From an uncultured bacterium (GTDB lineage: Bacteria; Fidelibacterota; Marinisomatia; Marinisomatales; TCS56), in NCBI GenBank assembly GCA_964410945.1, contig CAYPJE010000007.1, positions 28,733-92,732 on the forward strand: a stretch of 64,000 nt of DNA, written 5' to 3'. Position numbers and translations under genes: made by a program. Below the pieces are notes generated by a model. The model was not told where the DNA came from. It searched no databases and saw only the letters and a program-made list of their open reading frames with translations. Positions within the stretch are counted from its first letter, which is position 1. Each line of letters opens with the position of its first letter. Positions 1,985 to 60,688 of the stretch are shown here, one piece after another.

Positions 1985-1995
1985 TCAAGTTAGTT

Positions 1996-2420
1996 CGACC
2001 CTTTCTGGGTCGTTAATAACAGGGGTGAGGTATTCTGCCGGTTGCACCGGTAGTTATTCACATTTAATCCCTCCGGGATTGTGACAATTAGTAATTGGGT
2101 TTGTATAGATTTGAACAATGTATGTAATGGTTATCAATATTATCCAGGGTTCACAGGGTGGAATTCTAAGGGAATTGATTTAATTCTTATCGAAATGTTT
2201 CTGACAAAAGACCGGTGGGACTGCATGGGAAATGGATATCGATTGGATGTCACATAATTGCTGTGAAATGCATACAGGTAATTATAGGTTATGAATAACC
2301 TTAAATCAATAGTATGATGTTAATATACTTTGCTATTGCTGCTGACATAACCCCGGAGGGGTTAAATATGAATAGTAAAATATTTTCGATATTATTCACA
2401 ACCCTGGAAGGGTTGAATAA
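1996..2420. repeat. family of short CCC-loop-GGG hairpins in the 440-bp AT-rich spacer upstream of the Y1 transposase gene
   Basis: Four hairpins: cgaccc-tttct-gggtcg (1996-2012), aatccc-tcc-gggatt (2066-2080), taacccc-gga-ggggtta (2348-2364) and ttattc-a-caaccc-tggaa-gggttg-gaataa (2392-2420). Segments 2054-2080 and 2392-2415 also share the direct motif TTATTCACA before the hairpin. Confidence 0.6.
2392..2420 (+). promoter_or_regulatory. 12-bp-stem hairpin ending 3 nt before the transposase ATG (possible translation-initiation occlusion)
   Basis: TTATTC/GAATAA plus CAACCC/GGGTTG arms with loop tggaa. The ATG is at 2424, so any ribosome-binding region lies inside the 3' arm. Confidence 0.4.
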
Positions 2421-2423
2421 TTA

Positions 2424-2870
2424 ATGTCAACTTTCACCAGGATATATTATCATATCGTATTTTCTACTAAATATCGTGATCCATGTCTGACGATTGAAAA
2501 CAGGGAAAAACTATTTAAATATATCTGGGGGATAATTAATAAAAAGGATTGCCATTTATATCGCATCAATGGAGTGGAGGATCATATTCACATATTGACA
2601 GACTTGAAATCAAATATTTCCCTTGCCGATTTTGTTAAAGATATCAAAGTCGCCTCTTCAATCTGGATAAAAAATCAGAACATATTTCCTGCTTTTGAGG
2701 GCTGGCAGGAAGGCTATGCCGCTTTCACATGCGGCAGTAATGATAAAGATATGATAATCAATTATATCAAAAACCAGGAGGTTCATCACCGAAAACGAAC
2801 ATATTTGGAGGAGGTGGAAAGATTCCTGGAAGAGAATGAAATTGATTATGATAGCAGGTATCTGGTTTGA
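2424..2870 (+). CDS. IS200/IS605-type Y1 (HUH) transposase / RAYT-like protein
   Basis: N-terminal YYHIVFSTKYR block, HUH motif in EDHIHILTD, and a C-terminal Tyr helix NYIKNQEVHH. Length 148 aa. The gene and flanks are clearly more AT-rich than the neighbours. Confidence 0.85.
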   Translation: MSTFTRIYYHIVFSTKYRDPCLTIENREKLFKYIWGIINKKDCHLYRINGVEDHIHILTDLKSNISLADFVKDIKVASSIWIKNQNIFPAFEGWQEGYAAFTCGSNDKDMIINYIKNQEVHHRKRTYLEEVERFLEENEIDYDSRYLV

Positions 2871-2935
2871 CGCAAGCTGCAGCAATGATAAGTTTAACAG
2901 GATTTGAATAATGGTAATTAAAAAGAATTAGATAA

Positions 2936-5900: not shown

Positions 5901-6214
5901 CTGATAAGCCACACCTGTTTTTAACGGCTTCCGGTTTTGCCGGAGAAGAAGCAGGGTACCTGCTGACTGGACATGAACTGCATTTTAAAGACGGTACCAA
6001 TGAAGCACGGCTGTGGGAACATGGAAATTCGCTGCGGTATGAAAGTCAAACTATAAGCGCGTATATTGATCCTGTGACATTTGAAACATCCCGCATTAAA
6101 TTAAAAAACGTGGTTACAGATATGGTTACACTTGAAGATGCTTTTAGGATGGTTGTTCTCTGGAAGGGGCTGAACAAATTAACATATTTGAAAGATGAAA
6201 CAATGTCATCCTGA
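2936..6214 (+). CDS. ygfK: YgfK-like multidomain flavoprotein/Fe-S oxidoreductase (DPD-like TIM barrel + GltD-like FAD/NAD(P) module + C-terminal 2x[4Fe-4S])
   Basis: 1092 aa. Two Rossmann motifs (VVGGGPSGITCAYFLALEG and LIIGGGNTAMDAART), GGDAVRG, and Cys clusters CVSAPCVETC..CDHQCQNKC, CLYCDEFCDVCVTVCP and CNECGNCTTFCP. Its position relative to the amidohydrolase, FAD subunit and Mo subunit matches E. coli ygfK (recalled from memory). Confidence 0.82.
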   Translation: MSDKLYPIPLERLLPWIMAEEKQGSIFGISKELFFVPHIDQPFRMKRYGQLLENPIGVAAGPHTQLSQNIVAAWLTGARYIELKTVQTLDEIEVVKPCIDIQDEGYNCEWSQELKLRQSFDQYLDAWILVHILRHHWGWEGDGPGVIFNMSVGYDMNGILNANVQEFLDSMVGCQSELDKKLNRIEKIYPGISQVEIPGRITNNITLSTMHGCPPDEIEKIARYLIEDRHLHTTVKLNPTLLGPEHLREIINGKLGFRNVEVPDIAFEHDLKYEQALALIRNLTATAGLSGVEFGLKLTNTLEVLNRKLIFPDSEKQAYLSGRALHPISVNLAKQLQHAFDGELDISFCAGADCYNVSDLVACGVAPVTTCSDLLKPGGYGRLAQYIANLEADFQHYKAGSIDELIINYSRQRIDLRTAIRANLSTYADKVLDLAQYQRQKPFYPSIKGQRPLDYFDCVSAPCVETCAAHQGIPDYLYHSSRGEFDLAYDVILRTNSMPAVTGYVCDHQCQNKCTRINYDRPLMIRDIKRFVSEDQAGQETNKPKPDKGRKAAVVGGGPSGITCAYFLALEGFEVTLYEHSQSLGGMVSGMIPSFRLGAESISNDLNMLERSGVLVKTGRQISSNDFDRLRKENNYIYLAVGAQSSKRLGISGEDTDGVLDPLVFLADVKTGDNLPAGSEVLIIGGGNTAMDAARTARRAVGEQGKVTIVYRRTIDQMPADWEEVAAAQAEGIAVRELLAPLKIESGGGGLVLTVQKMKLGTPDSSGRLRPVPIDSAYSSISADYIIPAVGQDVELDFMPGNKIKVDPETQQTDMPDVYAGGDAVRGADTIIGAIADGHKAARSITRAAGFEADDSFKLLKGKGDRADQPIRFATRDYGDFAEHDYSEMQTAPQKVLLTAEQARAEASRCLYCDEFCDVCVTVCPNRANLAYPTEMIDVPLPAISSDGAVSAESRFVITQPAQIVNLAELCNECGNCTTFCPTSGRPFADKPHLFLTASGFAGEEAGYLLTGHELHFKDGTNEARLWEHGNSLRYESQTISAYIDPVTFETSRIKLKNVVTDMVTLEDAFRMVVLWKGLNKLTYLKDETMSS

Positions 6215-6271
6215 GCTAGCCTGCTGGGTCGTAGCACAGCGTAGACTAGTCGAAGGATGACATAAATAATT

Positions 6272-7678
6272 ATGTCAAGAATACTTATTAAAAACTCACA
6301 ACTGATCGCCCGGATGGATGATTCCGGCACCGAATTCAGCGGGGGACACATTCTGATCGATAACGGAATTATCGAATCAATCGGTCCGGAACCACTGGAT
6401 ATTCCCGGTGCTGAAGTGATCGATGCCAGGGGAATGACAGTATTACCTGGATTCGTGAATACCCATCACCATTTCTACCAGACTTTGACCCGCAACATCC
6501 CCCTGATGCAGGATCAGCCCCTGTTCGACTGGCTGAAGAATCACTATGAGGTCTGGCGGGAGATTACCTCAGAAGCGGTGACCGTCAGCAGTACAACGGC
6601 CTTGCTGGAATTGATGAAATCGGGCACTACCACCAGTTCGGATCATCATTACCTTTTTCCCCGGGCGTCCGGAGGTGATCTGATCGATGCCCAGATCAAA
6701 GCGGCCCGTGAGTTGGGTGTGCGCTTCCATGCCACCCGCGGATCCATGTCACTGGGCCGATCCCAGGGTGGACTGCCACCGGATGATGTGGTCCAGACCG
6801 AGGCCGAGATCCAGACCGACGTGGAGCGTCTTTTAGAAAAATATCATGATGGGTCCGAAGGAGCGATGGTCAGGGTGGCATTGTCACCTTGCTCGCCTTT
6901 TTCGGTGACTCCGGAATCATTGAAACAGTCTGCCGAATATGCCCTGGCGAATAATATCCATATGCATACCCATCTGGCGGAAACCAGGGATGAAGAGGAT
7001 TTCTGCCTTAATTATGTCGGTAAACGTCCGGCCGAGTTCATGGCCGATCAGGGTTGGTTTAATGATAAAGCCTGGTTTGCCCATTCGATTTTTCTCAACG
7101 ATGATGAAATCAGCCGACTTGGGGCAGCCGGTGGTGGAATTGCCCATTGCCCGTCGTCGAATATGCGACTGGGTTCGGGGATTGCCCGTATCAGCGAAAT
7201 GCTGGAGGCCGGTGTTAAAGTCGGTCTTGGTGTCGACGGATCAGCTTCCAATGACAGCAGCAATATGCTGGCTGAGATCCGGCAGGCCCTGCTTATTTCG
7301 CGGTTGCGGGAAGAAAAACACTGGCTGACGGCCCGGGATGTACTGTGGATCGCTACCCGGGGAGGTGCAGCGGCCCTGGGACGCAGCGATATCGGTCAAT
7401 TGTCGGTTGGGAAACAGGCTGACATCGCCCTCTTCTCCGTTGATTCACTGGAATATGCCGGTGCCCAGTCCGATCCTCTGGCTGCTTTGGCATTTACGGT
7501 ACGGATGAGCCCGGTGGATTACCTGATCGTCAACGGTAGAATTTGTATTCGCAGTGGTAAAAGCTCGCTGGACGAGTCTGATTTGGTACGCAAACATAAC
7601 ATTATAGCCGGCCGGTTGCTGGAACGGGCCGGGAAAAATACCGGTCTTGATTTTATGAATAATAACAGGCAAAATTGA
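6272..7678 (+). CDS. amidohydrolase-superfamily deaminase (8-oxoguanine deaminase / SsnA-position homolog)
   Basis: VLPGFVNTHHHFYQTLTR metal-binding HxH block, HTHLAET, and GLGVDGSASND Asp ligand. Length 468 aa. Confidence 0.8.
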   Translation: MSRILIKNSQLIARMDDSGTEFSGGHILIDNGIIESIGPEPLDIPGAEVIDARGMTVLPGFVNTHHHFYQTLTRNIPLMQDQPLFDWLKNHYEVWREITSEAVTVSSTTALLELMKSGTTTSSDHHYLFPRASGGDLIDAQIKAARELGVRFHATRGSMSLGRSQGGLPPDDVVQTEAEIQTDVERLLEKYHDGSEGAMVRVALSPCSPFSVTPESLKQSAEYALANNIHMHTHLAETRDEEDFCLNYVGKRPAEFMADQGWFNDKAWFAHSIFLNDDEISRLGAAGGGIAHCPSSNMRLGSGIARISEMLEAGVKVGLGVDGSASNDSSNMLAEIRQALLISRLREEKHWLTARDVLWIATRGGAAALGRSDIGQLSVGKQADIALFSVDSLEYAGAQSDPLAALAFTVRMSPVDYLIVNGRICIRSGKSSLDESDLVRKHNIIAGRLLERAGKNTGLDFMNNNRQN

Positions 7679-7680
7679 CT

Positions 7681-8409
7681 ATGTGGTCTTCAATAAAAAC
7701 AATTCATCATCCTGATTCGCTGGTCTCTGCCAGCCAACTGGCCAAAGAGGAGGCCACCGCATTGTTGGCCGGTGGGACTTACCTGGTGGCCGAACGCTAC
7801 CCAGCCATCAGCAACCTGGTGGACCTTAACGGGCTGCTAAAGAGTGAAATAAAAATTGCCGAGCAGGAACTGATCTGTGACGCTGGGGTTGTCCTTCAGG
7901 ATCTTGTTGATCATTTTTCAATTGACGATCCTCTCCGGTTAGGCACCGCCGCCCGGCATTCCTGCTCATCGAAAAATATCCGCAATCAACGGACGCTGGG
8001 GGGCGAAATCGCCCGGGGCCGAACCGATTCGGAACTGGTGGTGGCGCTGACGGCATTGAATGCCCAACTGATCACAGCGGAGGATTCGATAATAACCGGG
8101 GTGGCCGTTGATCTGAGTGATAATCCCAAAGTGGCCCTGGAACGCTTTGCCCTGCTGCCTTCGGCGCCGGCTTTTGTTATAGTAGCTGCCGTATGTCGTG
8201 GGGAAAGCCTGAAGATCGTAGTGGGTGGTAAGGCTGATAAACTGGCGGTGGAAGACGTACCTTCCGACGGCTGTACCGTAGAATGGATCGCCGGTTTCTG
8301 TAAAGCTGCAGCCGAAAGATTTCCTGCGGACCATATCGGCAATCGTGATTATAAACAGACCGTGATAACCACGGGGCTTAAACGGGTGGCGGAGGCCCTA
8401 TGCAGATAA
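7681..8409 (+). CDS. FAD-binding subunit of molybdenum hydroxylase (YgfM-like, copy 2)
   Basis: LLAGGTYLV and RTLGGEIA FAD-binding-domain motifs, about 243 aa. An alternative TTG start at 7675 overlaps the upstream stop. The 3' end overlaps the next ATG by 10 nt. Confidence 0.78.
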   Translation: MWSSIKTIHHPDSLVSASQLAKEEATALLAGGTYLVAERYPAISNLVDLNGLLKSEIKIAEQELICDAGVVLQDLVDHFSIDDPLRLGTAARHSCSSKNIRNQRTLGGEIARGRTDSELVVALTALNAQLITAEDSIITGVAVDLSDNPKVALERFALLPSAPAFVIVAAVCRGESLKIVVGGKADKLAVEDVPSDGCTVEWIAGFCKAAAERFPADHIGNRDYKQTVITTGLKRVAEALCR

Positions 8410-8837
8410 ATATCTCATTAAACGGCCAACAACTGGCAATCATCGTTGCCCCGGGTGAAACCCTGTTGGAAGTCCTGCGGGACCAGGGCTATTTCGGGGC
8501 CAAACACGGTTGTGATCATGGTGAGTGCGGGGCCTGCACGGTGCTGATAGATGATAAGGCTGTCAATTCCTGCCTGGTCCTGGCTCATAGTGCGGATGGG
8601 AAAAAAGTGGAAACGATTGAGGGATTGGGCGATCATGAGCAACTACATCCGTTGCAGGAGAAATTCATTGCCAGCGGAGCGATCCAATGCGGTTTCTGTA
8701 CGCCGGCCATGATCCTGGCATTGGAGGCCCTGAGTCGGGAAACAACGGAACCAACTGAAGCACAGGTGAGGGATGCGCTGTCGGGGATCCTGTGTCGTTG
8801 CACCGGCTATGTGAAACCGGTGGAGGCGGCCTTATGA
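8400..8837 (+). CDS. [2Fe-2S]-binding small subunit of molybdenum hydroxylase (copy 2)
   Basis: CDHGECGACTV, QCGFCTPA and CRCTGY motifs. Length 145 aa. ATGA overlap with the large-subunit start. Confidence 0.9.
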   Translation: MQINISLNGQQLAIIVAPGETLLEVLRDQGYFGAKHGCDHGECGACTVLIDDKAVNSCLVLAHSADGKKVETIEGLGDHEQLHPLQEKFIASGAIQCGFCTPAMILALEALSRETTEPTEAQVRDALSGILCRCTGYVKPVEAAL

Positions 8838-11119
8838 AAGTGATCGGAAAACCAACCGCCCGTGTGGACGGACCGGCCTTGTCGCGGGGTAAGCCTGTTT
8901 TTGCCGATGATATGTACCTGCCGGGAACACTGTACCTGAAAATTCTGCACAGCCCGGTAGCTCATGCCCGGATCAAATCAATCGATGCCGGCCGGGCCCT
9001 GGCACGTCATGGTGTGGTGGCGGTTTACACTCATGAGGATTTTCCGGTCCATTATTATACTACCGCCGGGCAAGGTTATCCTGAGCCGGGCCCCCGGGAT
9101 TACCGGATACTGGACGATACCGTTCGTTATGTGGGTGACCGGGTGGCGCTGATAGCAGCCGAATCACTGGAGCTTGCCGAGGCCGCTCTTAATGAAATTG
9201 AAGTGGAATACGAGGAATTACCATCCCTCCTGGATGCAGGTAAAGCGCGTTCCTCCGAAATTGTTATCCATCCGGAACAGGGGAAGACCGGAATCCATGA
9301 CGTTGAAAAAAACATAGCCGCCCATATCGAAGCGGAAGTTGGTGATGTAGAAAAGGCTTTCGAGGAATTGCCCCACGTTTTCCATGGGGAATACAGCACA
9401 CCGTTTGTCCAGCAGGCCCATATCGAACCCCATATCAGTCTGAGCTGGCTGGATGATGACGGCCGGATCGTGATCCGTACCGCTACCCAGGTGCCTTTTC
9501 ATGTCCGGCGGATCGTGGCTGAAGTGCTGGATATCCCGGTCCGGAAGATTCGGGTCATTAAACCGCGGATCGGTGGCGGCTTCGGCGGTAAACAGGAAAT
9601 ATTGAATGAAGAACTGGTGGCGGCGGTGACGCTGAAAACCGGTCGTCCGGCCCGGATCGAATATACCCGGGAAGAAGAATTTTATGCCGCCCGGACCCGC
9701 CATCCCCAGATCACCAAATTCAGGATCGGGGTGGATAATGAGTGTCGGGTCCAGGCCATCGACCTGGATATTCTGGAGAATACGGGTGCTTATGGCGCCC
9801 ATTCACTCACTGTGATGTCAGTGACGGCCCAGAAAGCATTATCGCTTTATCGGGCGCCCAACCTGCGGGTTTACGGTGATGCGGTTTATACCAACCTGCC
9901 GATCGCCGGGGCTTATCGCGGCTACGGCGCACCCCAGGGATTTTTCGGTTTGGAATCACTAATGGATGAAATTGCTGCTGAATTGGGGATCGATCCGGTG
10001 GAATTCCGGCATAAGAACTATGTGCAGGTGGATGATGATTTGCCCATCGCCGCCATCCTGGGCGAAGGCCGGGAGGGCTTCCCGGCCAAGGTGCGCTCCA
10101 CGGGAATGAAAGACTGCCTGGAGGAAGGCAGAACACTGATCGACTGGGAAGGCATTCGCAGTACTCCCAGGACGGGTGTGATCCGCCGTGGTGTCGGTGT
10201 GGCTGTGGTGGGACAGGGCTCCGGTATTCCCGGCATTGACATGGGATCAGTATTTATCAAGATGAATGAAGACGCCAGCTTTAACCTGTTGGTGGGTGCC
10301 ACCGATCTGGGAACTGGTTCCGATACGGTCCTGGCCCAGATCGCCGCCGAGGAAATCGGCGTGCCGGTAGAGCAGATCCTGGTCTATTCCAGTGACACGG
10401 ACCGTACACCGTTCGACACCGGCGCCTATGCTTCCAGCACGACCTACATCAGCGGTAACGCTGTAAAAAAGGCTGCCGCTGATGTGAAACGCCAAATCCT
10501 TGAACTGGGTAAAAAATTGTTGGGCGCCGGTGAGGCGGAAATTCGAGACCAGCAAGTTGTAGCCGCCGATGGAAGCAGTATTTCGTTCAAGGATATTTGC
10601 ATCAAAACTTTCTATACCGAAGAGCAGACCCAGATCATGTCCACGGCCAGTCATATGAGTTTCGATTCGCCTTCACCGTATAATGCCACTTTCGCCGATG
10701 TTTCTGTGGATACGGAAACCGGCCTGGTAACGGTGAACAAGGTTGTATCGGTGACCGATATCGGACAGGTAATCAATCCCCAGATGGCGGAAGGCCAGAC
10801 CGAAGGGGGGATACCCCAGGCCCTTGGTATGGCCCTGACCGAATTTATGGTCTTTGATGACCGGGGCCGGCCGATGAATACTGATTTCAATGATTATCAT
10901 ATTTACACTGCCATCGATATGCCGGAAATTGTGACCAGGTTTGTCCATACCAGCGAACCCACCGGCCCGTTTGGCGCCAAGGCGGCGGCGGAGATACCGA
11001 TTAACGGTCCCGCTCCGGCGGTGGTGAATGCGATCCATAATGCCTGCGGAGTGCGCATCAGGGAGCTGCCGGTAACGCCGGGGAAAATCCTTAACGGATT
11101 GGTGAGTAGTGAGAAGTAG
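8834..11119 (+). CDS. molybdopterin-binding large subunit of xanthine dehydrogenase-family hydroxylase
   Basis: MKVIGKPTARVDGPALSRGKPVFADD N-terminus, GGGFGGK, and GAYRGYGAPQG motifs. I chose the ATG at 8834 (ATGA coupling) over the listed 8792 extension. Length 761 aa. Confidence 0.9.
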   Translation: MKVIGKPTARVDGPALSRGKPVFADDMYLPGTLYLKILHSPVAHARIKSIDAGRALARHGVVAVYTHEDFPVHYYTTAGQGYPEPGPRDYRILDDTVRYVGDRVALIAAESLELAEAALNEIEVEYEELPSLLDAGKARSSEIVIHPEQGKTGIHDVEKNIAAHIEAEVGDVEKAFEELPHVFHGEYSTPFVQQAHIEPHISLSWLDDDGRIVIRTATQVPFHVRRIVAEVLDIPVRKIRVIKPRIGGGFGGKQEILNEELVAAVTLKTGRPARIEYTREEEFYAARTRHPQITKFRIGVDNECRVQAIDLDILENTGAYGAHSLTVMSVTAQKALSLYRAPNLRVYGDAVYTNLPIAGAYRGYGAPQGFFGLESLMDEIAAELGIDPVEFRHKNYVQVDDDLPIAAILGEGREGFPAKVRSTGMKDCLEEGRTLIDWEGIRSTPRTGVIRRGVGVAVVGQGSGIPGIDMGSVFIKMNEDASFNLLVGATDLGTGSDTVLAQIAAEEIGVPVEQILVYSSDTDRTPFDTGAYASSTTYISGNAVKKAAADVKRQILELGKKLLGAGEAEIRDQQVVAADGSSISFKDICIKTFYTEEQTQIMSTASHMSFDSPSPYNATFADVSVDTETGLVTVNKVVSVTDIGQVINPQMAEGQTEGGIPQALGMALTEFMVFDDRGRPMNTDFNDYHIYTAIDMPEIVTRFVHTSEPTGPFGAKAAAEIPINGPAPAVVNAIHNACGVRIRELPVTPGKILNGLVSSEK

Positions 11120-13553: not shown

Positions 13554-16511
13554 ATGGCTAGAAGAATTTCTGTTTGGTGTGCTTTACTTTCACTCCTGTC
13601 CGCCCAAATAAATCCAGTGGAAGGAATCCGCTCAAATCCACCACGAATATGGGCACTGACCAACGCTACTGTAGTCACTGAGCCAGGAAAGATACTGGAA
13701 GATGCCAGCATCCTGATCAGAGATGGCCTGATCGAGTCGGTTGGAAGGGATATTGCCTTACCACCGGATGCGACGATACTCGATTATTCCGGCAATACGG
13801 TTTATCCCGGTTTTATTGACAGCTGGCTTCCGGTAGACCAGTCTGAGAACGGTGGTGCGTCCTCCAGGGCGCATTGGAATTCTTTTGTACGTGCCGATAT
13901 GGTGACCAGCCGGTTATATAAACCGGATAATGAGCATTTGAAATCTTTGCATGGATTGGGATTTACAGCGGCTCAGGTAGTTGGTGAAAAAGGCATTTTC
14001 CGTGGATTTGGCGGGGTGGTGCTGTTGACCAACCAGGCAACAACGCTTGTGGATCAATCAGCCCAGGTTGTTTCTATTGAATTTGGTCGCTACCAATCAA
14101 CCGATTATCCTAAATCCGAGTTTGGTTCCATCGCACTGATCCGCCAGACTTTACTTGATGCCGACTGGTACCGGGCCGCTAATACCATTTATGAAAAATA
14201 TCCCAATCTGAATGAACCGGTCCCCGTCAATAATGCCTTGGAAGCGATTGGATCGGCACGGAACAGGCGACTACCCTTTATTTTCATCCCGAAAGAGGAG
14301 CAAGGTCTGCTGCAGGCCGGTAAAATCGCCGCAGAATTCAACTTGCCGTTCTACGTAAGGGGAACTGGTTATGAGTACCGGAGAGCGCGGGAAATAGCAT
14401 TGACCAATCCATTTCTGATCCTCGATCTGAAATTTCCGGAAGCCCCGGCGATTAGTGATCGGCTTGGCGCCAGGGAAATTACCACGGAACAACTCAAGCA
14501 CTGGAAACTGGGCCCGGACAACGTAAAGCGGATGCTGGAAAATGAGGTGTCAGTGGCTCTGACCTGCGATGGCTTGAAGGATCAGCAATTCCGGATCAAC
14601 CTGGCCAGGGCTGTAAAGCAGGGTTTGGATAAAACCGCGGCCCTGGCAGCCATGACCACCATCCCGGCTGAGAAGTTAGGCATTGGTAACAGCATTGGTA
14701 AAATAGCTCCTGGTTTGGTTGCTAATCTGACTGTAGTTGCTGGCGATTATTTCAATCCTGATGATCCGTTGCATGCCGTTTGGATCGGTGGCGATGAATA
14801 CACACTCGAAGATAAAAATATTAAAGATATCTCAGGTGCATGGAAAGTAATATTAGATGATAAAAACTATGACTTAAAGTTATTATTTAAAGGTGGTAAA
14901 TGGTCAGGATCAATCGAAAGTGACAGTATTACAGTCCCGCTTAAACAGTTGGTCCATAACAACCGGATGATCAAATTTGTTGCTTCCACAAATGAATTGG
15001 GATGGGCAGGTATTACCCGTTTCAGCGGCCGGATCAGGGATGGAGAGCTGCTTCTGACGGCGACTTTACCAGCCGGGGACAAGACTGCCATGGTGGCCAC
15101 AGCTGTGTCATCCCCGGAACCGGATAAGCCGGAACCGGATAAGGAAATATCAAAGGTCTTTGCGAGTTTTCCGGAGGGTGCTTTTGGATTCGAGGAATTA
15201 CCCGTACCGGAACCGGTTATATTGGTCAATGACGCCACTATCTGGACCTGCGGCCGACAGGGTATCCTCAAGGGCTGGGATATGCTGGTGGTAAATGGAA
15301 AGATAGACCGGATCGCCCAGGATATAGCTTACCCGTCCGGTGGGGCATTGGTAGTTGACGCCGGAGGAAAACATGTTACTCCGGGGATAATCGACAGCCA
15401 TAGTCATACTGCCACCCGTTCCGTTAATGAAGGCACCCACAGCAATACGGCCGAAGTTCGGATTGCTGATGTACTGGATGCCGATGATATCAATATCTAC
15501 CGCCAGTTGGCAGGCGGGGTAACTGCAATCCATGTTCTGCATGGATCGGCTAATACAATTGGTGGGCAGAATGCCGTCATCAAAATGCGGTGGGGGAGTG
15601 TAGCTGACGATCTGCTGTTGAAAGGAGCACCACCGGGACTGAAATTCGCCCTCGGTGAAAATGTTAAACAATCAGGTTGGGGGGATCGGTTTGTGACCCG
15701 GTACCCGCAAACCAGGATGGGCGTGGAGCAGTACCTGCGGGATAATTTTGAGGCCGCCCGGGATTATCGGGCCGAGTTCAAGCGCTTTGAGCGTAATTCC
15801 CGCCTGAGAAAGACTAAGATTCCACCGCGGATCGATCTGTCAATGGAGGCAGTTGCTGAAGTTCTGGAGGACAAACGGCTCATGCATTGCCATGCCTATC
15901 GGCAGGATGAAATGCTGATGTTATTAAGACTGGCCGAGGAATTTGATTTCACAATGGATATGTTTCATCACGGACTGGAAGGCTACAAAATTGCCGATGA
16001 AATGGCAAAGCATGGAGCTGGGGTAGCGACTTTCACTGACTGGTGGGCTTATAAATTTGAAGTTTACGAAGCAATTCCCTATGCCGCCGGTCTCATGCAC
16101 GAAATTGGCGTAAGTGTTTCATTAAAATCCGACAGTGATGAATTGGCGCGGCATCTGAATACCGAAGCCGCCAAGGTGGTAAAATACAGTGGGATATCCG
16201 AGGAGGAGGCGTTTAAAATGATAACGATCAACTCCGCCCGTCAGCTTGGGATTGACCGCCATGTTGGTTCCCTGGAACCAGGTAAGGATGCTGATTTTGT
16301 GATCTGGAATACCAATCCTTTATCAACCAGTGCCGTGTGCCAGGAAACCTGGATTGATGGTGCCTTATACTTTTCCGTTGAACGCGACCGGGAATTGCGG
16401 GCAGCAGAGGCTGTTCTGCGGAATGACCTCATACAGAAGATTCTACTGGAACAGAACGGTGGTATCGGTAAGGAGAACGATGGATCCAAAGGGGCAGGAG
16501 GTGCATTATGA
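13554..16511 (+). CDS. secreted two-module amidohydrolase-family protein
   Basis: Signal peptide MARRISVWCALLSLLSAQ. The C-terminal module has the canonical VTPGIIDSHSHTA metal site plus EPGKDADFVIW. The N-terminal module has the same fold signature but reads VYPGFIDSWLP, with no HxH. Confidence 0.8.
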   Translation: MARRISVWCALLSLLSAQINPVEGIRSNPPRIWALTNATVVTEPGKILEDASILIRDGLIESVGRDIALPPDATILDYSGNTVYPGFIDSWLPVDQSENGGASSRAHWNSFVRADMVTSRLYKPDNEHLKSLHGLGFTAAQVVGEKGIFRGFGGVVLLTNQATTLVDQSAQVVSIEFGRYQSTDYPKSEFGSIALIRQTLLDADWYRAANTIYEKYPNLNEPVPVNNALEAIGSARNRRLPFIFIPKEEQGLLQAGKIAAEFNLPFYVRGTGYEYRRAREIALTNPFLILDLKFPEAPAISDRLGAREITTEQLKHWKLGPDNVKRMLENEVSVALTCDGLKDQQFRINLARAVKQGLDKTAALAAMTTIPAEKLGIGNSIGKIAPGLVANLTVVAGDYFNPDDPLHAVWIGGDEYTLEDKNIKDISGAWKVILDDKNYDLKLLFKGGKWSGSIESDSITVPLKQLVHNNRMIKFVASTNELGWAGITRFSGRIRDGELLLTATLPAGDKTAMVATAVSSPEPDKPEPDKEISKVFASFPEGAFGFEELPVPEPVILVNDATIWTCGRQGILKGWDMLVVNGKIDRIAQDIAYPSGGALVVDAGGKHVTPGIIDSHSHTATRSVNEGTHSNTAEVRIADVLDADDINIYRQLAGGVTAIHVLHGSANTIGGQNAVIKMRWGSVADDLLLKGAPPGLKFALGENVKQSGWGDRFVTRYPQTRMGVEQYLRDNFEAARDYRAEFKRFERNSRLRKTKIPPRIDLSMEAVAEVLEDKRLMHCHAYRQDEMLMLLRLAEEFDFTMDMFHHGLEGYKIADEMAKHGAGVATFTDWWAYKFEVYEAIPYAAGLMHEIGVSVSLKSDSDELARHLNTEAAKVVKYSGISEEEAFKMITINSARQLGIDRHVGSLEPGKDADFVIWNTNPLSTSAVCQETWIDGALYFSVERDRELRAAEAVLRNDLIQKILLEQNGGIGKENDGSKGAGGAL

Positions 16512-17830
16512 GAATCACTTTAGTATCGCTATTCATTGTAATTGCATCATTGATGGCTTCCGATCAGATTCCGGCTGCTGCCCAGAAAAATCCGGTTCTG
16601 TTGCGTGGCGGTATCCTGCATACTGTGTCAGGTGGAATTCTTAATTCTGATATCCTGTTCCGTGAAGGTAAAATTGCTGCCATTGGGAATGCGATTGAAA
16701 CCTTTCCGTATTACGAGATAATTGACATCAAGGGGAAGCATGTATATCCCGGTTTGCTGGCAGCCAGTACCTCATTGGGGCTGGTTGAGATTGATGCGGT
16801 GCGGGCCACGCTGGACTATACTGAGGTTGGGCCGTTGAATCCCAATGTGGTGGCCGGTCTGGCTTATAATCCCGATTCTGAATCTATACCGGTGACCCGC
16901 TCCAACGGAATCTTACTGGCGAATGTCACTCAGCAATCAGGATTTCTGGCCGGTCAGTCATCATTGATGATGCTGGATGGCTGGACACATGAAGAAGCTA
17001 CTTTGGAATTGGTCGTTGGAATGAATTTGTTCTGGCCGACGGAAAAAAATGCTTGGGGTCAATATTCTCCACAGCAGTTAAAGAAAGTCCGGGAGAATAA
17101 TGAACAGAAATTGGAGAAATTGAATCTCCTGTTCGAACAGGCCCGTGCCTATCGGAAAGTGATGAAGGCAGAAAAGTCAGGAAAACGTCTGAAATCCCAG
17201 AAGCATGATCTGAAACTGGACAGTCTGATACCTGTTCTTGATAAAAAGATTCCTCTGTTGGTTCATGCAAATATGGCCCGGGAGATCGAAGCAGCAATCA
17301 ATTGGGGTTTACAACAGAATGTCAGAATCGTGATCGTCGGTGGGCATGACGCTGCCATGGTTGTCGATCTTTTGGTCGAGAACGATATCCCGGTCATCTA
17401 CAAAAAGGTCCTTGCTTTACCGGTTAAACGACATGACAGTTACGACCAGGTTTATGCAACGCCGGCTGAATTGCATGCCGCAGGAGTGAAAGTGGCGATC
17501 AGTGGCGCTAACTATGGTTTTGAAGCACCTCATCAGCGTAATCTGCCATATCAGGCCGCCCAGGCGATGGCATTTGGATTGCCAGCTGATATTGCCCTGC
17601 GCAGTATAACACTGACTCCGGCCGAGATCCTTGGGATTAATGATCGGGTTGGTTCGCTTTCGGTCGGTAAGGACGCAACTCTGTTTATTGCCAACGGTGA
17701 TATTCTGGATATTCGCACCAACGTCGAACAGGCCTATATCAGGGGGAAAAAAGTGGATATGAGTGACCGGCACAAGCAGCTGCATGCCAAATATCGGGAA
17801 AAATATCGTCAATTGGGTATCCTGGAATAA
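16508..17830 (+). CDS. secreted amidohydrolase-family protein lacking the HxH metal motif
   Basis: ATGA overlap with the upstream gene. Signal peptide present. VYPGLLAASTSLG sits at the position of the HxH motif, and the C-terminal SVGKDATLFIANGD block is typical of the family. Confidence 0.78.
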   Translation: MRITLVSLFIVIASLMASDQIPAAAQKNPVLLRGGILHTVSGGILNSDILFREGKIAAIGNAIETFPYYEIIDIKGKHVYPGLLAASTSLGLVEIDAVRATLDYTEVGPLNPNVVAGLAYNPDSESIPVTRSNGILLANVTQQSGFLAGQSSLMMLDGWTHEEATLELVVGMNLFWPTEKNAWGQYSPQQLKKVRENNEQKLEKLNLLFEQARAYRKVMKAEKSGKRLKSQKHDLKLDSLIPVLDKKIPLLVHANMAREIEAAINWGLQQNVRIVIVGGHDAAMVVDLLVENDIPVIYKKVLALPVKRHDSYDQVYATPAELHAAGVKVAISGANYGFEAPHQRNLPYQAAQAMAFGLPADIALRSITLTPAEILGINDRVGSLSVGKDATLFIANGDILDIRTNVEQAYIRGKKVDMSDRHKQLHAKYREKYRQLGILE

Positions 17831-20108: not shown

Positions 20109-20903
20109 ATGAACCAAGCAACGACTGGGATAATCTTCGATATTAAACGGTTCGCGATTCACGATGGACCGGGTATTCGGACAACCGTGTTCTTTAAGGG
20201 ATGCCCGTTGGCCTGCTGGTGGTGTCATAATCCGGAGAGCCGGAATCCTGATATCGAACAATTCCCAACGATCAAACAGGATGTTGAAACTACACAGACT
20301 ATAGGTTATAAGGTATCAGTTGAAGAGGTTGTGGCTGAGATCAAACGTGATGTTGTATTTTATGATGAATCGGGAGGAGGGGTTACATTTTCTGGCGGGG
20401 AACCGCTGTTCCAGCCGACCTTCCTGGTCGAATTATTGGCTGCCTGCCAGTCGATCGGTATTCACACCTGTATTGATACTTCCGGATATTGCGAGCAAGA
20501 TATTCTGGAGAATATGATTGATCATACGGATTTATTTTTATTTGATCTGAAGTTAATGAACGCCCGGGATCACGAGATCCATACCGGTGTTCCGGGAGCT
20601 AATGTTATCGCTAACCTTGAATTCCTGTTAATGCGGAAAGCCAATTTGCAGATTCGCATTCCACTGATTCCTGGAATTACCGATGGCAGGGAAAACCTGG
20701 AAGACATGGCAAAATATATTTCACATTTTAATTTGAATCATGATATCGCTTTGCTGCCATTTAATTTATTTGCACAGAATAAATTTCATAAATTCCAGCT
20801 GAATAATCGATTAACGGCGATGAAATCACAATCGGCTGCTGAATTGGAGAGACTGGTGGATATTTTCAGGGGGTATAATCTGAATGTGACTATTGGAGGA
20901 TGA
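20109..20903 (+). CDS. glycyl-radical enzyme activating protein (radical SAM), short form without ferredoxin-like insert
   Basis: The N-terminal FDIKRFAIHDGPGIRTTVFFKGCPLACWWCHNPES carries the CX3CX2C radical-SAM motif, followed by SGGEP. Only three further isolated Cys residues and no CX2CX2CX3C motif. Length 264 aa. Confidence 0.9.
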   Translation: MNQATTGIIFDIKRFAIHDGPGIRTTVFFKGCPLACWWCHNPESRNPDIEQFPTIKQDVETTQTIGYKVSVEEVVAEIKRDVVFYDESGGGVTFSGGEPLFQPTFLVELLAACQSIGIHTCIDTSGYCEQDILENMIDHTDLFLFDLKLMNARDHEIHTGVPGANVIANLEFLLMRKANLQIRIPLIPGITDGRENLEDMAKYISHFNLNHDIALLPFNLFAQNKFHKFQLNNRLTAMKSQSAAELERLVDIFRGYNLNVTIGG

Positions 20904-20907
20904 CCCG

Positions 20908-23271
20908 ATGAATGCGCGAATTTCCCAACTTCGAAAAAAAAGCATTGAAGCAGTTCCCAGTATATCTCTTGAGCGGGCAGAGTTGATTACTGAGTTTTAC
21001 CAGACCGTTCGGAGCAACAAAAAATCGGTCCCTGTTACCAGGGCACTGGCATTCAAATACCTGCTTGAGAATAAGCGAATTTATATCAATCCCAACGAAC
21101 TGATCGTAGGCGAACGGGGGCCGGCTCCCAAAGCAACTCCTACTTATCCTGAAATCTGCTCCCACTCGATGGAAGATCTTGATATCCTGGATTCGAGAGA
21201 AAAAATACCTTTCAAATCAAGTGCTGAGATTAAGGCCACCCAACAGAAAACGATTGCACCATTCTGGACGGGCCAATCCTTACGTGATAAAATATTTTCC
21301 GAAGTTGACCAGGAGTGGAAGGATGCCTATCAGGCCGGTATCTTTACCGAATTCATGGAGCAACGCGCACCGGGGCATACGGTAATGGATGATAAGATCT
21401 ATCATAAGGGTATGAATGATTTTATCCGCGATATTGAAACTTCGATGAGCAACCTGGATTCTGTTTCCGATCCGGAAGCTCCAGGGAAACGTGAAGAACT
21501 GAAGGCGATGAAAATTGCCGCCGAAGCAATCATCACTTATGCCAGACGACACGCCGAACAGGCTGAAGCTCTGGCAATATCGGAACCGGATCAGGAACGC
21601 AAAACCGAGCTGCAGCAGATTGCAGCTATCTGCCGGAAAGTCCCGGCTGACAAACCTGAAACACTCTGGGAAGCGTTGCAGTATTACTGGTTCGTCCATC
21701 TGGGAGTGATTATTGAATTGAATACCTGGGATTCTTTCAATCCGGGCCGCCTGGATCAGCATCTGTTCCCTTTCTATCAGGAAGATCTGGCCAAAGGCAG
21801 ACTGAATGAATCGCAGGTTCGTGAATTGTTACAGGCGTTTTGGATCAAGTTCAATAACCAGCCGGCTCCACCAAAAGTTGGTGTAACGGCCAAAGAGAGT
21901 AATACCTATACTGATTTTTGCCTGATCAACGTTGGTGGTGTTGGGAAAGATGGCCAAGATGTCAGCAATGAACTCTCATATCTTATTCTGGATGTAATTG
22001 AAGAAATGCGCCTGCTTCAGCCCAGTTCGATGGTACAGGTCAGTCAGAAAACACCGGATGCACTACTGCAGCGGGCACTGAGAATTATAAAAACCGGTTA
22101 CGGGCAGCCATCATTGTTCAATACCGATGCAATAGTACCGGAGCTGGTTCGCCAGGGTAAATCATTATCTGATGCGCGGTTGGGAGGAGCAAGTGGTTGT
22201 GTTGAAGCAGGTGCATTCGGCAAGGAAAGCTATATCCTGACGGGCTATTTTAACCTGGTAAAAATTCTCGAGATCACACTCAATAATGGCTTTGACCCGC
22301 AGAGTGGAAAAAAAATTGGATTGTCAACCGGTGATTCCCGGGAGTTCGATTCCTTTAACCGGTTGTACTTGGCCTATGAGCGTCAGTTGAATCATTTCAT
22401 CGCTGTAAAAATCAGGGGTAATCTGATTATAGAACGCCTGTGGGCCCGGAATCTGCCGGCGCCCTTTATGTCAATCCTGATCGATGACTGCATCGCTACC
22501 GGCAGCGATTATAACAATGGCGGCGCACGCTATAATTCATCCTATGTACAGGGGGTAGGGCTGGGATCGATCACCGATTCGTTGTCGGCATTGAAATATC
22601 ATGTCTACGATCAGAAAACCATTTCTATGGATGGCATGCTCCAGGCGATTCAAAATGATTTTAATGGGCAAGAATTCCTGCGAAGCCGACTTATTGATGA
22701 AACTCCGCACTGGGGCAATGATGATGATCGCGCCGATGATCTGGCCCGGAAGGTGTTTGAATCATTTTTCAAGGCTGTCGATGGAATCCCGAATACCAAA
22801 GGCGGACATTACCGTATCAATCTATTGCCAACTACATCCCATGTCTATTTTGGCAGTGTCGTAGGGGCGACACCGGATGGGAGACAGGCCCGGCAGCCAT
22901 TATCCGAAGGAATATCACCCGTACAGGGGAATGACCGGAAAGGTCCGACGGCAGTTCTGAAATCGGCAGGGAAAATAGATCATATACGGACTGGTGGCAC
23001 GCTGCTTAATCAGAAATTCACCCCTCAGTTAATGGCCGATGATGTTAGTTTGGGTAAGATCGGCAGTTTGGTGCGCGCCTACTTCAAAATGAATGGTCAT
23101 CATATCCAGTTTAATGTAGTGTCAGTCGATACTTTACGGAAGGCACAGGCAAATCCTGAAGCATACCGTGACTTGATAGTGCGGGTGGCCGGATACAGTG
23201 ATTATTTTGTCGATCTGACCGAGGAGTTGCAGGAAGAAATCATCCGGCGGACCGAACATTTTTCAAATTAA
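20908..23271 (+). CDS. glycyl radical enzyme, dehydratase/eliminase (PFL2/glycerol-dehydratase-like) class, substrate unknown
   Basis: Glycyl loop RVAGYSDYF near the C-terminus. The thiyl loop GGASGCVEAG has a single Cys with Glu at +2, not the CC of pyruvate formate-lyase. The ATG at 20908 is preceded by GGAGGA. Confidence 0.9.
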   Translation: MNARISQLRKKSIEAVPSISLERAELITEFYQTVRSNKKSVPVTRALAFKYLLENKRIYINPNELIVGERGPAPKATPTYPEICSHSMEDLDILDSREKIPFKSSAEIKATQQKTIAPFWTGQSLRDKIFSEVDQEWKDAYQAGIFTEFMEQRAPGHTVMDDKIYHKGMNDFIRDIETSMSNLDSVSDPEAPGKREELKAMKIAAEAIITYARRHAEQAEALAISEPDQERKTELQQIAAICRKVPADKPETLWEALQYYWFVHLGVIIELNTWDSFNPGRLDQHLFPFYQEDLAKGRLNESQVRELLQAFWIKFNNQPAPPKVGVTAKESNTYTDFCLINVGGVGKDGQDVSNELSYLILDVIEEMRLLQPSSMVQVSQKTPDALLQRALRIIKTGYGQPSLFNTDAIVPELVRQGKSLSDARLGGASGCVEAGAFGKESYILTGYFNLVKILEITLNNGFDPQSGKKIGLSTGDSREFDSFNRLYLAYERQLNHFIAVKIRGNLIIERLWARNLPAPFMSILIDDCIATGSDYNNGGARYNSSYVQGVGLGSITDSLSALKYHVYDQKTISMDGMLQAIQNDFNGQEFLRSRLIDETPHWGNDDDRADDLARKVFESFFKAVDGIPNTKGGHYRINLLPTTSHVYFGSVVGATPDGRQARQPLSEGISPVQGNDRKGPTAVLKSAGKIDHIRTGGTLLNQKFTPQLMADDVSLGKIGSLVRAYFKMNGHHIQFNVVSVDTLRKAQANPEAYRDLIVRVAGYSDYFVDLTEELQEEIIRRTEHFSN

Positions 23272-23277
23272 TTATTG

Positions 23278-23607
23278 TCAGGTATGAGCTGGAACAACAG
23301 TATGCAGTAAATCAAGGATTTTTGCATCGATTATTATCAGGGTATGAGTAAGGTAAGTTGCTGAATTCTGTTCCGGGTCGGGACCATTTTCCAAATCGAC
23401 CAATTCCTCCAGATAGCCGCTGTTTTTATTATGAAGTGTTTCGATTAATTGGCGTCTGGTTTCCAGCAGTGCTTCAAAGGTTTTATTGCTCCCTGACCAA
23501 TCTTTGATCAGGTATTCGTCTATGTGCTCAATCACCGAATTAAAATATTCACGTTCCTCATACAGTAGTTGCTGAATAGAGTGCTCGGATGTGATGGGTG
23601 AGTACAT
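23278..23607 (-). CDS. hypothetical acidic helical protein
   Basis: 109-aa ORF convergent with the GRE gene. No recognisable motif. Confidence 0.4.
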   Translation of the reverse strand: MYSPITSEHSIQQLLYEEREYFNSVIEHIDEYLIKDWSGSNKTFEALLETRRQLIETLHNKNSGYLEELVDLENGPDPEQNSATYLTHTLIIIDAKILDLLHTVVPAHT

Positions 23608-34277: not shown

Positions 34278-36224
34278 ATGAAGAAAACGACCATTATTCT
34301 ACTGATCACGATGGCAATATCCCATGCCCAGGAAGATTTCCATGAAACCAAGGCACCCTGCAGTCATGCTAAATCTGCTCTGCAGACTTTAAGTACAGCC
34401 CGCAGGGCTACCGACGAGCAGGCTAAAATTGATGCCAAATATTATTTAATTGATATCACGATTGATCCGGGCGCCGAAACTGTCTCTGGCAGTGTGATAG
34501 GTGATTTTGAATTGGTTGATTCCTCCATAACCTATATTGAACTCGATCTGGTCAGCAATATGACGGTTTCCAGCACCGAAATGAATGGTTTGGTTGTTGA
34601 ACATACCAGGGTCAATGATTTCGTACATATTCCCGTCCCTGACACTATCAGGTCCGGGATGGTCCGGGTTAAAATATCCTATTCCGGCCAGCCCGAGGCC
34701 AGTGGTTTCGGATCGTTTGAATTCAGTTCCTATAACGGCCAGCCCTGGATCTGGAGTCTGTCAGAACCCTACGGTGCCCGTTCCTGGTGGCCCTGCAAGG
34801 ACGACCCGGCCGACAAAGCCGATTCGGTGGATATTGTGGTTACCGTACCCAATCCGTTGATCGTTGCCTCCAATGGTGTCCTGGTTGGTACCATGGATAT
34901 TGGTGAAGAATACCGTAAATATTATTGGCAGGAACGCTACCCGATTGTCACATACCTGGTTTCGGTGGCGATTCATCCCTATCTGGTCTGGTACGACCAG
35001 TATGTTTCTGCCGGCAACGACACAATGCCAATCGAATTTTATGTCAGGCCGGATTATTACGATACGGTTTATAATGATTATCTGAAGACAACTGATATGC
35101 TGACTGTTTTTTCCGGTCTGTTTGGTGAATATCCGTTCATCGATGAAAAATACGGTCATGCCGAATTCGGCTGGGGTGGGGGCATGGAACACCAGACGAT
35201 TACCAGCCTGGGGGGCTGGAGCGAGAGCCTTATTGCCCACGAACTGGCTCATCAATGGTGGGGTGATATGATCACCTGTGCCAGTTTCCACCATATTTGG
35301 CTCAACGAGGGATTTGCCACCTATGCCGAGGCCTTGTGGTGGGAATCCCAATACGGCTGGGAGGCCTATCATCAGGATATGATGAATAATGTCTATTATT
35401 ATGGTGGTACGATCTATGTTGATAATCCCGTATCGACCAGTGTGATTTTCAGTAAGAATCTCAGCTATAACAAGGCCTCCTGGGTACTGCATATGTTGCG
35501 GCATGTAGTTGGTGACAGTACGTTCTTCGATATTCTCAAGGCCTATGCCAACGCACCTGATTTACGACATAATTCCATAACAACTGAACAGTTCAGGGAT
35601 CTGTGCGAAACGGTGGCCGGAATCGATCTTGAGTATTATTTCGACCAGTGGATCTATGGGGAATATTTCCCGGATTATACCTTGGGATGGATTCAATCCG
35701 CGGACACCGTTACTATATCAGTTACCCAGACGCAAACGACTGGGACCTTCTTCAGGATGCCGATTGATTTGCAGGTTATCTGTAATGATACAACATTCAT
35801 CCAAGTGGTGGAAAACAGCCAGGTTAATGAATCATTTCAAATTGCGCTGCCGGGAAACAGCGTTGTGGAAAGAGTGGTCCTTGATCCCAATGACTGGATA
35901 CTGAAGATGGTTACCTATATGAATAATGGCCATGAGCCGGTGATTCCTGAGCGGTTCAGCCTGTGGCCCGCTTACCCGAATCCGTTCAATAGCGCCGTAA
36001 CGATTCCTTTTGCGGTCAGCAATCAGGACTGGATCAGGTTTTCGGTTTATAATCTGCTGGGTGAACTGGTATGGAATTATCAGGATTTCTACCACATCGG
36101 GGAGCATGATCTCCAATGGAATGGATACAATGCTGCTGGCAGGCTGGTACCCTCCGGGGTATATTTCATCCGAATGGAATACACCGGCGGATTCAATTCA
36201 CAAAAGATAGTATTGCTTAAATAA
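34278..36224 (+). CDS. M1-family zinc aminopeptidase with C-terminal T9SS sorting domain
   Basis: GGMEHQT exopeptidase motif, HELAHQWWGD...WLNEGFATY zinc site, and a C-terminal YPNPFNSAVTIPF...GVYFIRM...KIVLLK. Confidence 0.88.
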   Translation: MKKTTIILLITMAISHAQEDFHETKAPCSHAKSALQTLSTARRATDEQAKIDAKYYLIDITIDPGAETVSGSVIGDFELVDSSITYIELDLVSNMTVSSTEMNGLVVEHTRVNDFVHIPVPDTIRSGMVRVKISYSGQPEASGFGSFEFSSYNGQPWIWSLSEPYGARSWWPCKDDPADKADSVDIVVTVPNPLIVASNGVLVGTMDIGEEYRKYYWQERYPIVTYLVSVAIHPYLVWYDQYVSAGNDTMPIEFYVRPDYYDTVYNDYLKTTDMLTVFSGLFGEYPFIDEKYGHAEFGWGGGMEHQTITSLGGWSESLIAHELAHQWWGDMITCASFHHIWLNEGFATYAEALWWESQYGWEAYHQDMMNNVYYYGGTIYVDNPVSTSVIFSKNLSYNKASWVLHMLRHVVGDSTFFDILKAYANAPDLRHNSITTEQFRDLCETVAGIDLEYYFDQWIYGEYFPDYTLGWIQSADTVTISVTQTQTTGTFFRMPIDLQVICNDTTFIQVVENSQVNESFQIALPGNSVVERVVLDPNDWILKMVTYMNNGHEPVIPERFSLWPAYPNPFNSAVTIPFAVSNQDWIRFSVYNLLGELVWNYQDFYHIGEHDLQWNGYNAAGRLVPSGVYFIRMEYTGGFNSQKIVLLK

Positions 36225-55410: not shown

Positions 55411-55413
55411 TCA

Positions 55414-57980: not shown

Positions 57981-57992
57981 TCAGGTGAAAAG

Positions 57993-60587: not shown

Positions 60588-60688
60588 AAAATATCAAGTA
60601 AATATTTGAATTAGGAGAAATCATTATCAGATACTTGCTATTCATGCAGTTTTATTAATACCTTTGACATTATATGGGGGAAATAATA

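Follow-up and report, generated by a model that had tools for sequence, protein, structure and literature searches.

The closest described relative of the system treated here is HypD, the glycyl radical enzyme (GRE) that dehydrates Hyp (trans-4-hydroxy-L-proline). HypD spans 11 phyla, archaea included, and occurs in anoxic sediments; its activase was treated only in general terms in the work that established this distribution (PMC6219649). The residues by which HypD binds and converts Hyp were defined by structure and mutagenesis by Backman et al. (PMC7077986). According to a 2026 review, the vast majority of GRE activases have a ferredoxin-like domain whose function is unknown, and only the activases of pyruvate formate-lyase (PFL) and of class III ribonucleotide reductase consist of the radical S-adenosylmethionine (RS) domain alone (PMC13450708). 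Activases of GRM5 systems without the insertion were noted by Ferlez et al. (PMC6325248) and therefore provide a precedent among eliminase-class systems. Here we analysed a 64,000-nucleotide stretch of contig CAYPJE010000007.1 (assembly GCA_964410945.1) from an uncultured bacterium of the Fidelibacterota, hereafter called the window, in which the genes of an activase and a GRE lie next to each other. We consider it highly probable that they form a two-gene operon for anaerobic Hyp catabolism, composed of HypD and an activase without the two-cluster module. The pair comprises the following features:

20109..20903, + strand: gene of the HypD-activating enzyme, short form; 264 aa, RS domain only
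20202..20225, + strand: CX3CX2C motif C32/C36/C39 (CPLACWWC, from the translation), predicted to ligate the catalytic [4Fe-4S] cluster
20238..20303, + strand: Cys-free linker, residues ~44-65, at the site of the ferredoxin-like module of long activases (from alignments)
20895..20900, + strand: GGAGGA, Shine-Dalgarno-like sequence for hypD, abutting the activase stop codon at 20901-20903
20908..23271, + strand: GRE gene hypD, 787 aa, assigned from the NF043068 match, the 6VXC alignment and 15 active-site residues
22195..22206, + strand: Cys loop G430-C431-V432-E433 with the thiyl radical Cys and the CXE Glu, aligning with C434-V435-E436 of Clostridioides difficile HypD
23182..23208, + strand: glycyl radical loop R759-VAG(762)YSDYF-767 with the radical glycine G762, aligning with G765 of C. 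difficile HypD

Both proteins proved to be as the original prediction had described them. The GRE, with its GCVE and RVAGYSDYF loops, has 787 aa when translated from the ATG at 20908, 7 nt past GGAGGA; the mechanical open reading frame (ORF) opens at a TTG at 20893, which is not the likely start. The single-Cys GCVE loop places it in the eliminase (CXE) class and not with PFL, as had been proposed. In the 264-aa activase, the Cys-free stretch HNPESRNPDIEQFPTIKQDVETTQTIGYKVS comes after CPLACWWC. The whole protein contains only six Cys, CX2CX2CX3C does not occur in it, and both translation and fold model agree with the claimed PflA-like architecture without a two-cluster insert. Pfam domains are Radical_SAM and Fer4_12 in the activase, and PFL-like and Gly_radical (residues 666-768) in the GRE.

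The activase gene ends 4 nt ahead of the hypD start codon. Because the GGAGGA for hypD abuts the activase stop codon, its position implies probable translational coupling of the two genes and thus a two-gene operon. A search for regulatory RNAs around the operon gave no Rfam matches at E <= 1, and promoter and terminator consensus sequences were matched no more often than expected from shuffled sequence. An identical 264-aa activase beside an identical 787-aa GRE was recovered from three independently assembled SRA runs, which excludes mis-assembly or truncation of the activase.

To identify the GRE, we compared it with curated models and solved structures. It matched the NCBIfam equivalog model of trans-4-hydroxy-L-proline dehydratase, NF043068, with 1243.3 bits (cut-off 1100), over residues 3-784 of the protein and profile positions 2-782 of 784. 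The next substrate-specific NCBIfam model, sulfopropanediol dehydratase, reached 552 bits. Among all sequences of the PDB, C. difficile HypD (6VXC/6VXE) was the best match with 991 bits, end-to-end and with 54% identity over 780 residues. Glycerol dehydratase, the next family, scored 542 bits and CutC about 400-440. HpyG, HpzG and HplG (8ID1, 8IOF, 7VUA) are likewise eliminase-class CXE enzymes that act on hydroxyproline derivatives, namely N-methyl-cis-4-hydroxyprolines and trans-4-hydroxy-D-proline (PMC13450708). They scored only 422-446 bits versus 991 for HypD, so that our GRE lies outside those families.

The active site gives the same picture. In C. difficile HypD, D278, D339, H160 and E436 function in acid/base chemistry or in handling of the hydroxyl or amine group, and D278 and D339 are strictly conserved within HypD, unlike in other eliminases. 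The carboxylate is bound by S334, Y450 and T645 with R156 and K326 nearby, while F340 (a proline-aromatic contact), F152 and W277 provide aromatic contacts (PMC7077986). In a MAFFT alignment, all 15 HypD positions (F152, R156, H160, W277, D278, K326, S334, D339, F340, C434, V435, E436, Y450, T645 and G765) are kept in the GRE with an offset of -3, as F149, R153, H157, W274, D275, K323, S331, D336, F337, Y447 and T642 plus C431, V432, E433 and G762. The same positions are invariant in 81 of 81 HypD-like GREs (the query and 80 fetched relatives) and differ in YbiW, PflD and PflB of Escherichia coli. Two relatives, one paired with a short activase (L089) and one with a long activase (L039), also exceed the HypD equivalog cut-off (1312 and 1353 bits). 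The original prediction had called the GRE an orphan whose substrate cannot be inferred. Since the equivalog cut-off is passed, 6VXC is matched and every HypD residue is kept, it is not an orphan. Judged from its sequence, the GRE is a HypD orthologue, that is, a known enzyme already recognised by NCBI's curated HypD model, and its substrate can be proposed.

Compared with the C. difficile system, the locus shares the GRE family, an identical Gly loop, the CXE Cys loop and the adjacent activase gene (PMC7077986). It differs in the activase: in the 299-position HypD-activase profile, about 50 positions are unmatched here, at the site of the 8-Cys module of long forms. The host differs as well, being an environmental bacterium of the Fibrobacterota-Chlorobiota-Bacteroidota (FCB) group and not a gut Firmicute.

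We therefore looked closely at the activase. Among NCBIfam models, it scored best with that of the HypD activase, NF043069 (T4HPD_activ_SAM), at 270.4 bits in two stretches that leave profile positions ~45-95 unmatched. The PFLA model TIGR02493 reached 194.3 bits, below its equivalog cut-off of 231.75, whereas subfamily TIGR02494 (PFLE_PFLC) was passed with 262.5 bits (cut-off 174.35), in agreement with NCBI's generic name for homologues, 'glycyl-radical enzyme activating protein'. Across the tested activases, the HypD-activase model gave 270-325 bits for short and 374-401 bits for long forms, versus 177-218 bits for the PFLA model. When aligned with the long HypD activase of L039 (302 aa), the protein could be followed from residue 7 to the C-terminus, and all 41 gap positions fell into the interval that separates the radical SAM motif from the G-x-x-V-S segment. 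Multiple alignment showed that short forms retain the flanks of the long forms, CHNPE..PE and G[RY]xVS, and that a variable Cys-free loop replaces the 8-Cys module. The sequence of this linker is not conserved among short forms. Its length, counted from CX3CX2C to GGVTxSGGE, is bimodal, with 39-56 aa in short and 81-90 aa in long forms (PflA 33, PflC 63, YbiY 91).

An AlphaFold2 model built from 43 homologues was confident throughout (pLDDT 92.9, pTM 0.90) and predicted the linker as a beta-hairpin of residues 50-65 (strands 50-56 and 59-65, pLDDT >90). Foldseek superposed the model onto PFL-AE, the activase of PFL (3CB8), with a TM score of 0.93 and an rmsd of 1.7 A; PFL-AE is also the sole solved full-length relative found by sequence. 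In the 43 aligned short activases, which are ~48% identical to the query, C32/C36/C39, the glycine-loop-binding segment H18-D19-G20-x-G22-I23-R24 (DGxGxR), G96-G97-E98 and the DTxG and DxK motifs are invariant. Because the catalytic motifs are invariant at this level of identity, the alignment indicates that purifying selection probably acts on a working activase. Thus, the short activase appears to be a genuine, complete and functional-looking protein, predicted to be without only the two-cluster module.

Likeness to E. coli PflA (3C8F/3CB8) comprises the RS domain alone, one [4Fe-4S] cluster and the motifs DGxGxR, CX3CX2C and GGE, and is an architectural resemblance only. The two are ~28% identical, the partner here is a single-Cys eliminase, and the activase has an extra hairpin linker of ~17 aa. 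The GRM5 activases described by Ferlez et al. in 2019 (PMC6325248) also serve eliminase-class GREs and also lack the ~70-aa ferredoxin-like insertion. However, they act on microcompartment-encapsulated GREs of the diol-dehydratase type, whereas the partner here is HypD and the scanned ORFs of the window encode no BMC-domain protein; we likened the two by description, not by sequence. PflC and YbiY, the activases of the E. coli C-O lyases PflD and YbiW, belong to the same subfamily TIGR02494, but both retain part or all of the module, of which the query has none, and both fall outside the HypD-activase group in the neighbour-joining tree. PflC keeps about half a ferredoxin module (L087:6259-7137, linker 63 aa), and YbiY has a full-length insert in which several Cys are replaced (L086:7613-8512, linker 91 aa). 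The short HypD activase is the end point of a graded series of auxiliary-Cys loss that is visible in these characterised paralogues.

From the protein identities we infer the following course of the reaction. The activase would hold one [4Fe-4S] cluster via C32/C36/C39 and reductively cleave S-adenosylmethionine, and the resulting 5'-deoxyadenosyl radical would take a hydrogen from the GRE residue G762. The glycyl radical formed there would generate a thiyl radical on C431, which would abstract a hydrogen from C5 of trans-4-hydroxy-L-proline. With D275, H157, E433 and D336 serving the acid/base steps, the 4-hydroxyl would leave as water, yielding delta-1-pyrroline-5-carboxylate (P5C). P5C may then be reduced to proline or oxidized to glutamate by enzymes whose genes lie elsewhere in the genome. 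Because the whole two-cluster module is lost and a short hairpin linker remains, the electron would enter directly at the radical SAM cluster, as in PFL-AE.

How widespread is the short form? We searched a collection of 5.8 billion proteins with the activase and found that all of the 120 best matches are short (249-293 aa). Their named sources include Zixibacteria, Calditrichia, Neomarinimicrobiota, Fidelibacterota, Bacteroidota and Asgard archaea (Heimdall-, Thor- and Promethearchaeum-type). In addition, we scanned GTDB species genomes with the GRE, which gave 80 loci at 64-70% identity; class counts were taken from the 72 loci with a complete activase directly upstream. At 45 of these loci the activase is short (249-297 aa, no ferredoxin motif; L047 included) and at 27 it is long (291-365 aa, 11-16 Cys), a ratio not to be read as a global frequency, since the sampling favoured relatives of the query. 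Short forms were present in Zixibacteria, Calditrichota, Ignavibacteria/Melioribacter, Bacteroidota, WOR-3, Krumholzibacteriota, Thermoplasmatota, Hodarchaeota and Harpocratesius, and long forms in Aminicenantes, Anaerolineae, metagenome-assembled genomes labelled 'Eubacteriales', Peptococcaceae, Acidobacteriota and Bathyarchaeia.

In the reverse test, short activases were picked solely by activase similarity, and in three of three cases the gene directly downstream encodes a GRE that has the complete set of HypD residues. These loci are a syntenic relative of the query, the cultured Promethearchaeum syntrophicum (CP042905) and a Heimdallarchaeaceae contig. The short form therefore seems to be no peculiarity of one genome but a lineage-wide architecture, prevailing in a large environmental HypD lineage. 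At L090:6814-9117 (Heimdallarchaeaceae contig, JGI 3300033141), a HypD-type GRE of 767 aa beside a short activase ends ...LIVRVAVIILLI. Its frame is lost exactly at the glycyl radical loop, with no Gly there, which could reflect a frameshift, an assembly error or a pseudogene.

According to the original prediction, the case would fail if the GRE clustered tightly within a characterised family that likewise has short activases, or if the activase were truncated or mis-assembled. The former holds in part: the family is a characterised one, HypD, and 45 of the 72 near-relative loci are of the short type, but the characterised C. difficile enzyme is of the long type. The latter is contradicted by the three identical assemblies, the 120 short homologues and the complete predicted fold.

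Neighbour-joining trees of the activases, calculated with the insert columns masked, grouped short and long HypD activases together, with E. coli PflC and YbiY apart and PflA far away. Short forms came out as one clade, with weak bootstrap support (72 of 200 replicates), and long forms were paraphyletic; a tree based on Kimura distances did not recover the single short clade. A single origin claimed from the activase tree was therefore dropped. In the GRE tree, built on a longer alignment, 200 of 200 replicates set all HypDs apart from YbiW and PflD, and a single bipartition, present in the full tree and in 115 of 200 replicates, unites the short-paired GREs. Similarity among GREs follows activase type, as a GRE and its nearest neighbour share the class in 72 of 72 cases. 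Taken together, tree and alignment data favour, with moderate support, a scenario in which the module was lost once and the two genes were afterwards inherited or transferred together, and descent of the activase from ferredoxin-domain HypD activases by loss of the two-cluster module is favoured over an origin from PflA.

No GRE column discriminates short-paired from long-paired enzymes at the 85% level; of the activase columns, a single one (T191/N) separates the classes. Loss of the module might have been compensated by a stand-alone ferredoxin gene. This is ruled out near the GRE, as a non-activase ORF with CX2CX2CX3C lies within 3 kb of the GRE at none of the 45 short-type loci. Together, these results incline us, if only a little beyond an even chance, to the view that a large HypD lineage across bacteria and archaea uses activases minus both auxiliary [4Fe-4S] clusters, probably after one loss, while sister lineages keep the clusters and have the same first-shell HypD residues without fixed differences. 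This lineage comprises Zixibacteria, Calditrichota, Ignavibacteria/Bacteroidota, WOR-3, Krumholzibacteriota, Thermoplasmatota and Asgard archaea including the cultured Promethearchaeum. Between the query pair and its syntenic relative (L088:6001-9158), the activases are only 53% and the GREs 72% identical, and the activase thus evolves markedly faster than the GRE.

As the original prediction had recommended, we surveyed homologous loci for conserved neighbours. M24 Xaa-Pro peptidases adjoin 34 of 81 loci, in both activase classes. Also recurrent are members of the proline-racemase family (14 loci), GntR regulators (9 loci, long class only), OCD/mu-crystallin (8), proline dehydrogenase (6), the DHDPS family (5) and POT peptide transporters (4). 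Because Xaa-Pro peptidases and proline-pathway genes recur beside the relatives, this setting supports a role in the catabolism of peptide-derived (hydroxy)proline. Neither kind of gene is present among the scanned ORFs of the window.

Several points speak against a HypD operon with a short activase. In the Pfam scans of the 64-kb window, proC and prolidase were not found, whereas proC adjoins hypD in many Clostridia (PMC6219649). No Hyp transporter was found beside the pair; the nearest transporters, of the MFS (44007-45806) and SSF (52009-53742) families, are >20 kb off. This agrees with the original prediction, which had seen no neighbours that would reveal the substrate. Among the ORFs scanned (those of at least 150 aa plus smaller ORFs flanking the pair), a microcompartment shell protein, an aldehyde dehydrogenase, a P5C reductase and a sulfite reductase were likewise absent. 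Moreover, the activase stays below the NF043069 equivalog cut-off (270.4 versus 425 bits), as do the long, environmental HypD activases of L039, L045 and L074 (374-401 bits). Support from the activase and GRE trees for a single origin of the short form is no more than moderate (72/200 and 115/200), and loss of the ferredoxin domain could carry a functional cost.

Against this background we weighed other explanations of the pair. A window without proC, prolidase or transporter, and an activase architecture unlike that of the characterised HypD system, would suit an orphan eliminase-class GRE whose substrate is not inferable. We regard this as very unlikely, given that the curated HypD threshold is exceeded, that the HypD score is nearly double that of any other solved GRE, that all HypD-specific residues are kept, including those equivalent to D278, D339 and S334, three positions without conservation in other eliminases, and that relatives adjoin Xaa-Pro peptidase and proline-pathway genes. 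The GRE could also be HypD-like with a shifted specificity, for another Hyp stereoisomer, N-methylated Hyp or a Hyp dipeptide, in which case the short-activase clade would be a distinct functional subfamily. A distinct sublineage does exist, seen in the agreement of activase type among all 72 nearest neighbours and in the one bipartition of the GRE tree; identity to the characterised enzyme is only 54%, and genes of the proline-racemase/epimerase family often adjoin relatives. Yet there are zero first-shell differences from C. difficile HypD, no column separates short-paired from long-paired GREs at the 85% level, and the enzymes for N-methyl-Hyp and D-Hyp (8ID1, 8IOF and 7VUA) score under half of HypD, which makes such a shift improbable.

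Two further explanations concern the activase. Its RS-only architecture, its PFL-AE-like fold (TM 0.93) and the fact that PFL-AE is its sole solved full-length sequence relative might suggest that a PflA-type enzyme was recruited by horizontal replacement. This is extremely unlikely in our view: despite ~50 unmatched positions the HypD-activase model beats PFLA (270 versus 194 bits, and up to 325 versus 218 in relatives), the flanks CHNPE and G[RY]xVS are those of long HypD activases where PflA has CHNRD, the linker is 6-23 aa longer than that of PflA, and the neighbour-joining tree puts short forms with long HypD activases. We assign next to no weight to a truncated, mis-assembled or decaying activase in a non-functional system, in spite of the score under the equivalog cut-off and the broken GRE frame at L090. 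Three independent assemblies contain the identical gene, the ORF is intact with hypD coupled downstream, catalytic motifs are invariant in 43 homologues at ~48% identity, the fold prediction is confident and complete, and the short form is present at 45 reference-genome loci. A two-gene operon of HypD and a module-less activase therefore remains the explanation that we prefer.

Upstream of the pair lie a divergent hybrid histidine kinase and an SDR gene and, farther up, two amidohydrolases; downstream are a conserved hypothetical of 109 aa, a response regulator, a CPDase-like protein, an isochorismatase-family protein and TPR proteins. None of the 80 reference loci links these neighbours to HypD, and the neighbourhood is shared, in part, with the close syntenic relative L088 only. 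The 109-aa ORF (23278-23607, - strand) is Cys-free, convergent with hypD and without Pfam or NCBIfam match. With a 116-aa ORF that occupies the corresponding place in L088 it shares 67% identity, but it is absent from the 80 reference HypD loci and is thus a lineage-specific conserved hypothetical. The adjacent amidohydrolase-superfamily genes (13554-17830, + strand; 2.3 kb upstream of the operon) encode one protein of 985 aa, in which the amidohydrolase region is duplicated, and one of 440 aa. We considered them as Hyp-releasing prolidases and dropped this candidate, because the Caulobacter Xaa-Pro dipeptidase model reached 92 bits (cut-off 500) and the genes are not conserved beside HypD.

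Farther away, at 651-11119 (+ strand), genes for subunits of a molybdoenzyme of the xanthine dehydrogenase type (Fer2_2, FAD_binding_5, MoCoBD), a dihydropyrimidine-dehydrogenase-like Fe-S flavoprotein of 1092 aa and an amidohydrolase probably form a catabolic locus of the purine or pyrimidine type. At 34278-36224 and 52009-63475 (+ strand), Por_Secre_tail domains of the type IX secretion system occur on two proteins, an M1 peptidase and a 933-aa protein. The same segments hold a cluster for amino sugars, chitin or murein recycling (SSF transporter, GNAT, AnmK, polysaccharide deacetylase, GH9, GH20). Secretion domains and amino-sugar cluster point to a polymer degrader of the FCB group.

The system is best described as a known enzyme, HypD, with a modestly novel activase architecture, and so as a known system in a new architectural variant. 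On its own the GRE contributes little, being one more HypD; the interest lies in the activase and is moderate for the GRE field, the system being ordinary in other respects. Our full-text literature search, which had subscription literature outside its scope, found no description of ferredoxin-less HypD activases. For annotation, the curated activase model with its cut-off of 425 bits misses a whole environmental lineage, the members of which are therefore annotated only generically. NF043069 under-calls HypD activases outside gut lineages, even those that contain the ferredoxin domain.

For the biochemistry of GREs, insoluble activases that are hard to reconstitute are a major bottleneck according to the 2026 review (PMC13450708), and single-cluster activases are possible tools. 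HypDs with all first-shell residues in common and without fixed differences are served by two natural forms of activase, one that has the domain and one that lacks it, and the role of the auxiliary clusters is therefore testable. If our interpretation is true, the ferredoxin-like domain would be dispensable for activating an eliminase-class GRE, and nature would offer matched long and short pairs for establishing the role of the domain, together with a simpler and possibly more tractable single-cluster activase.

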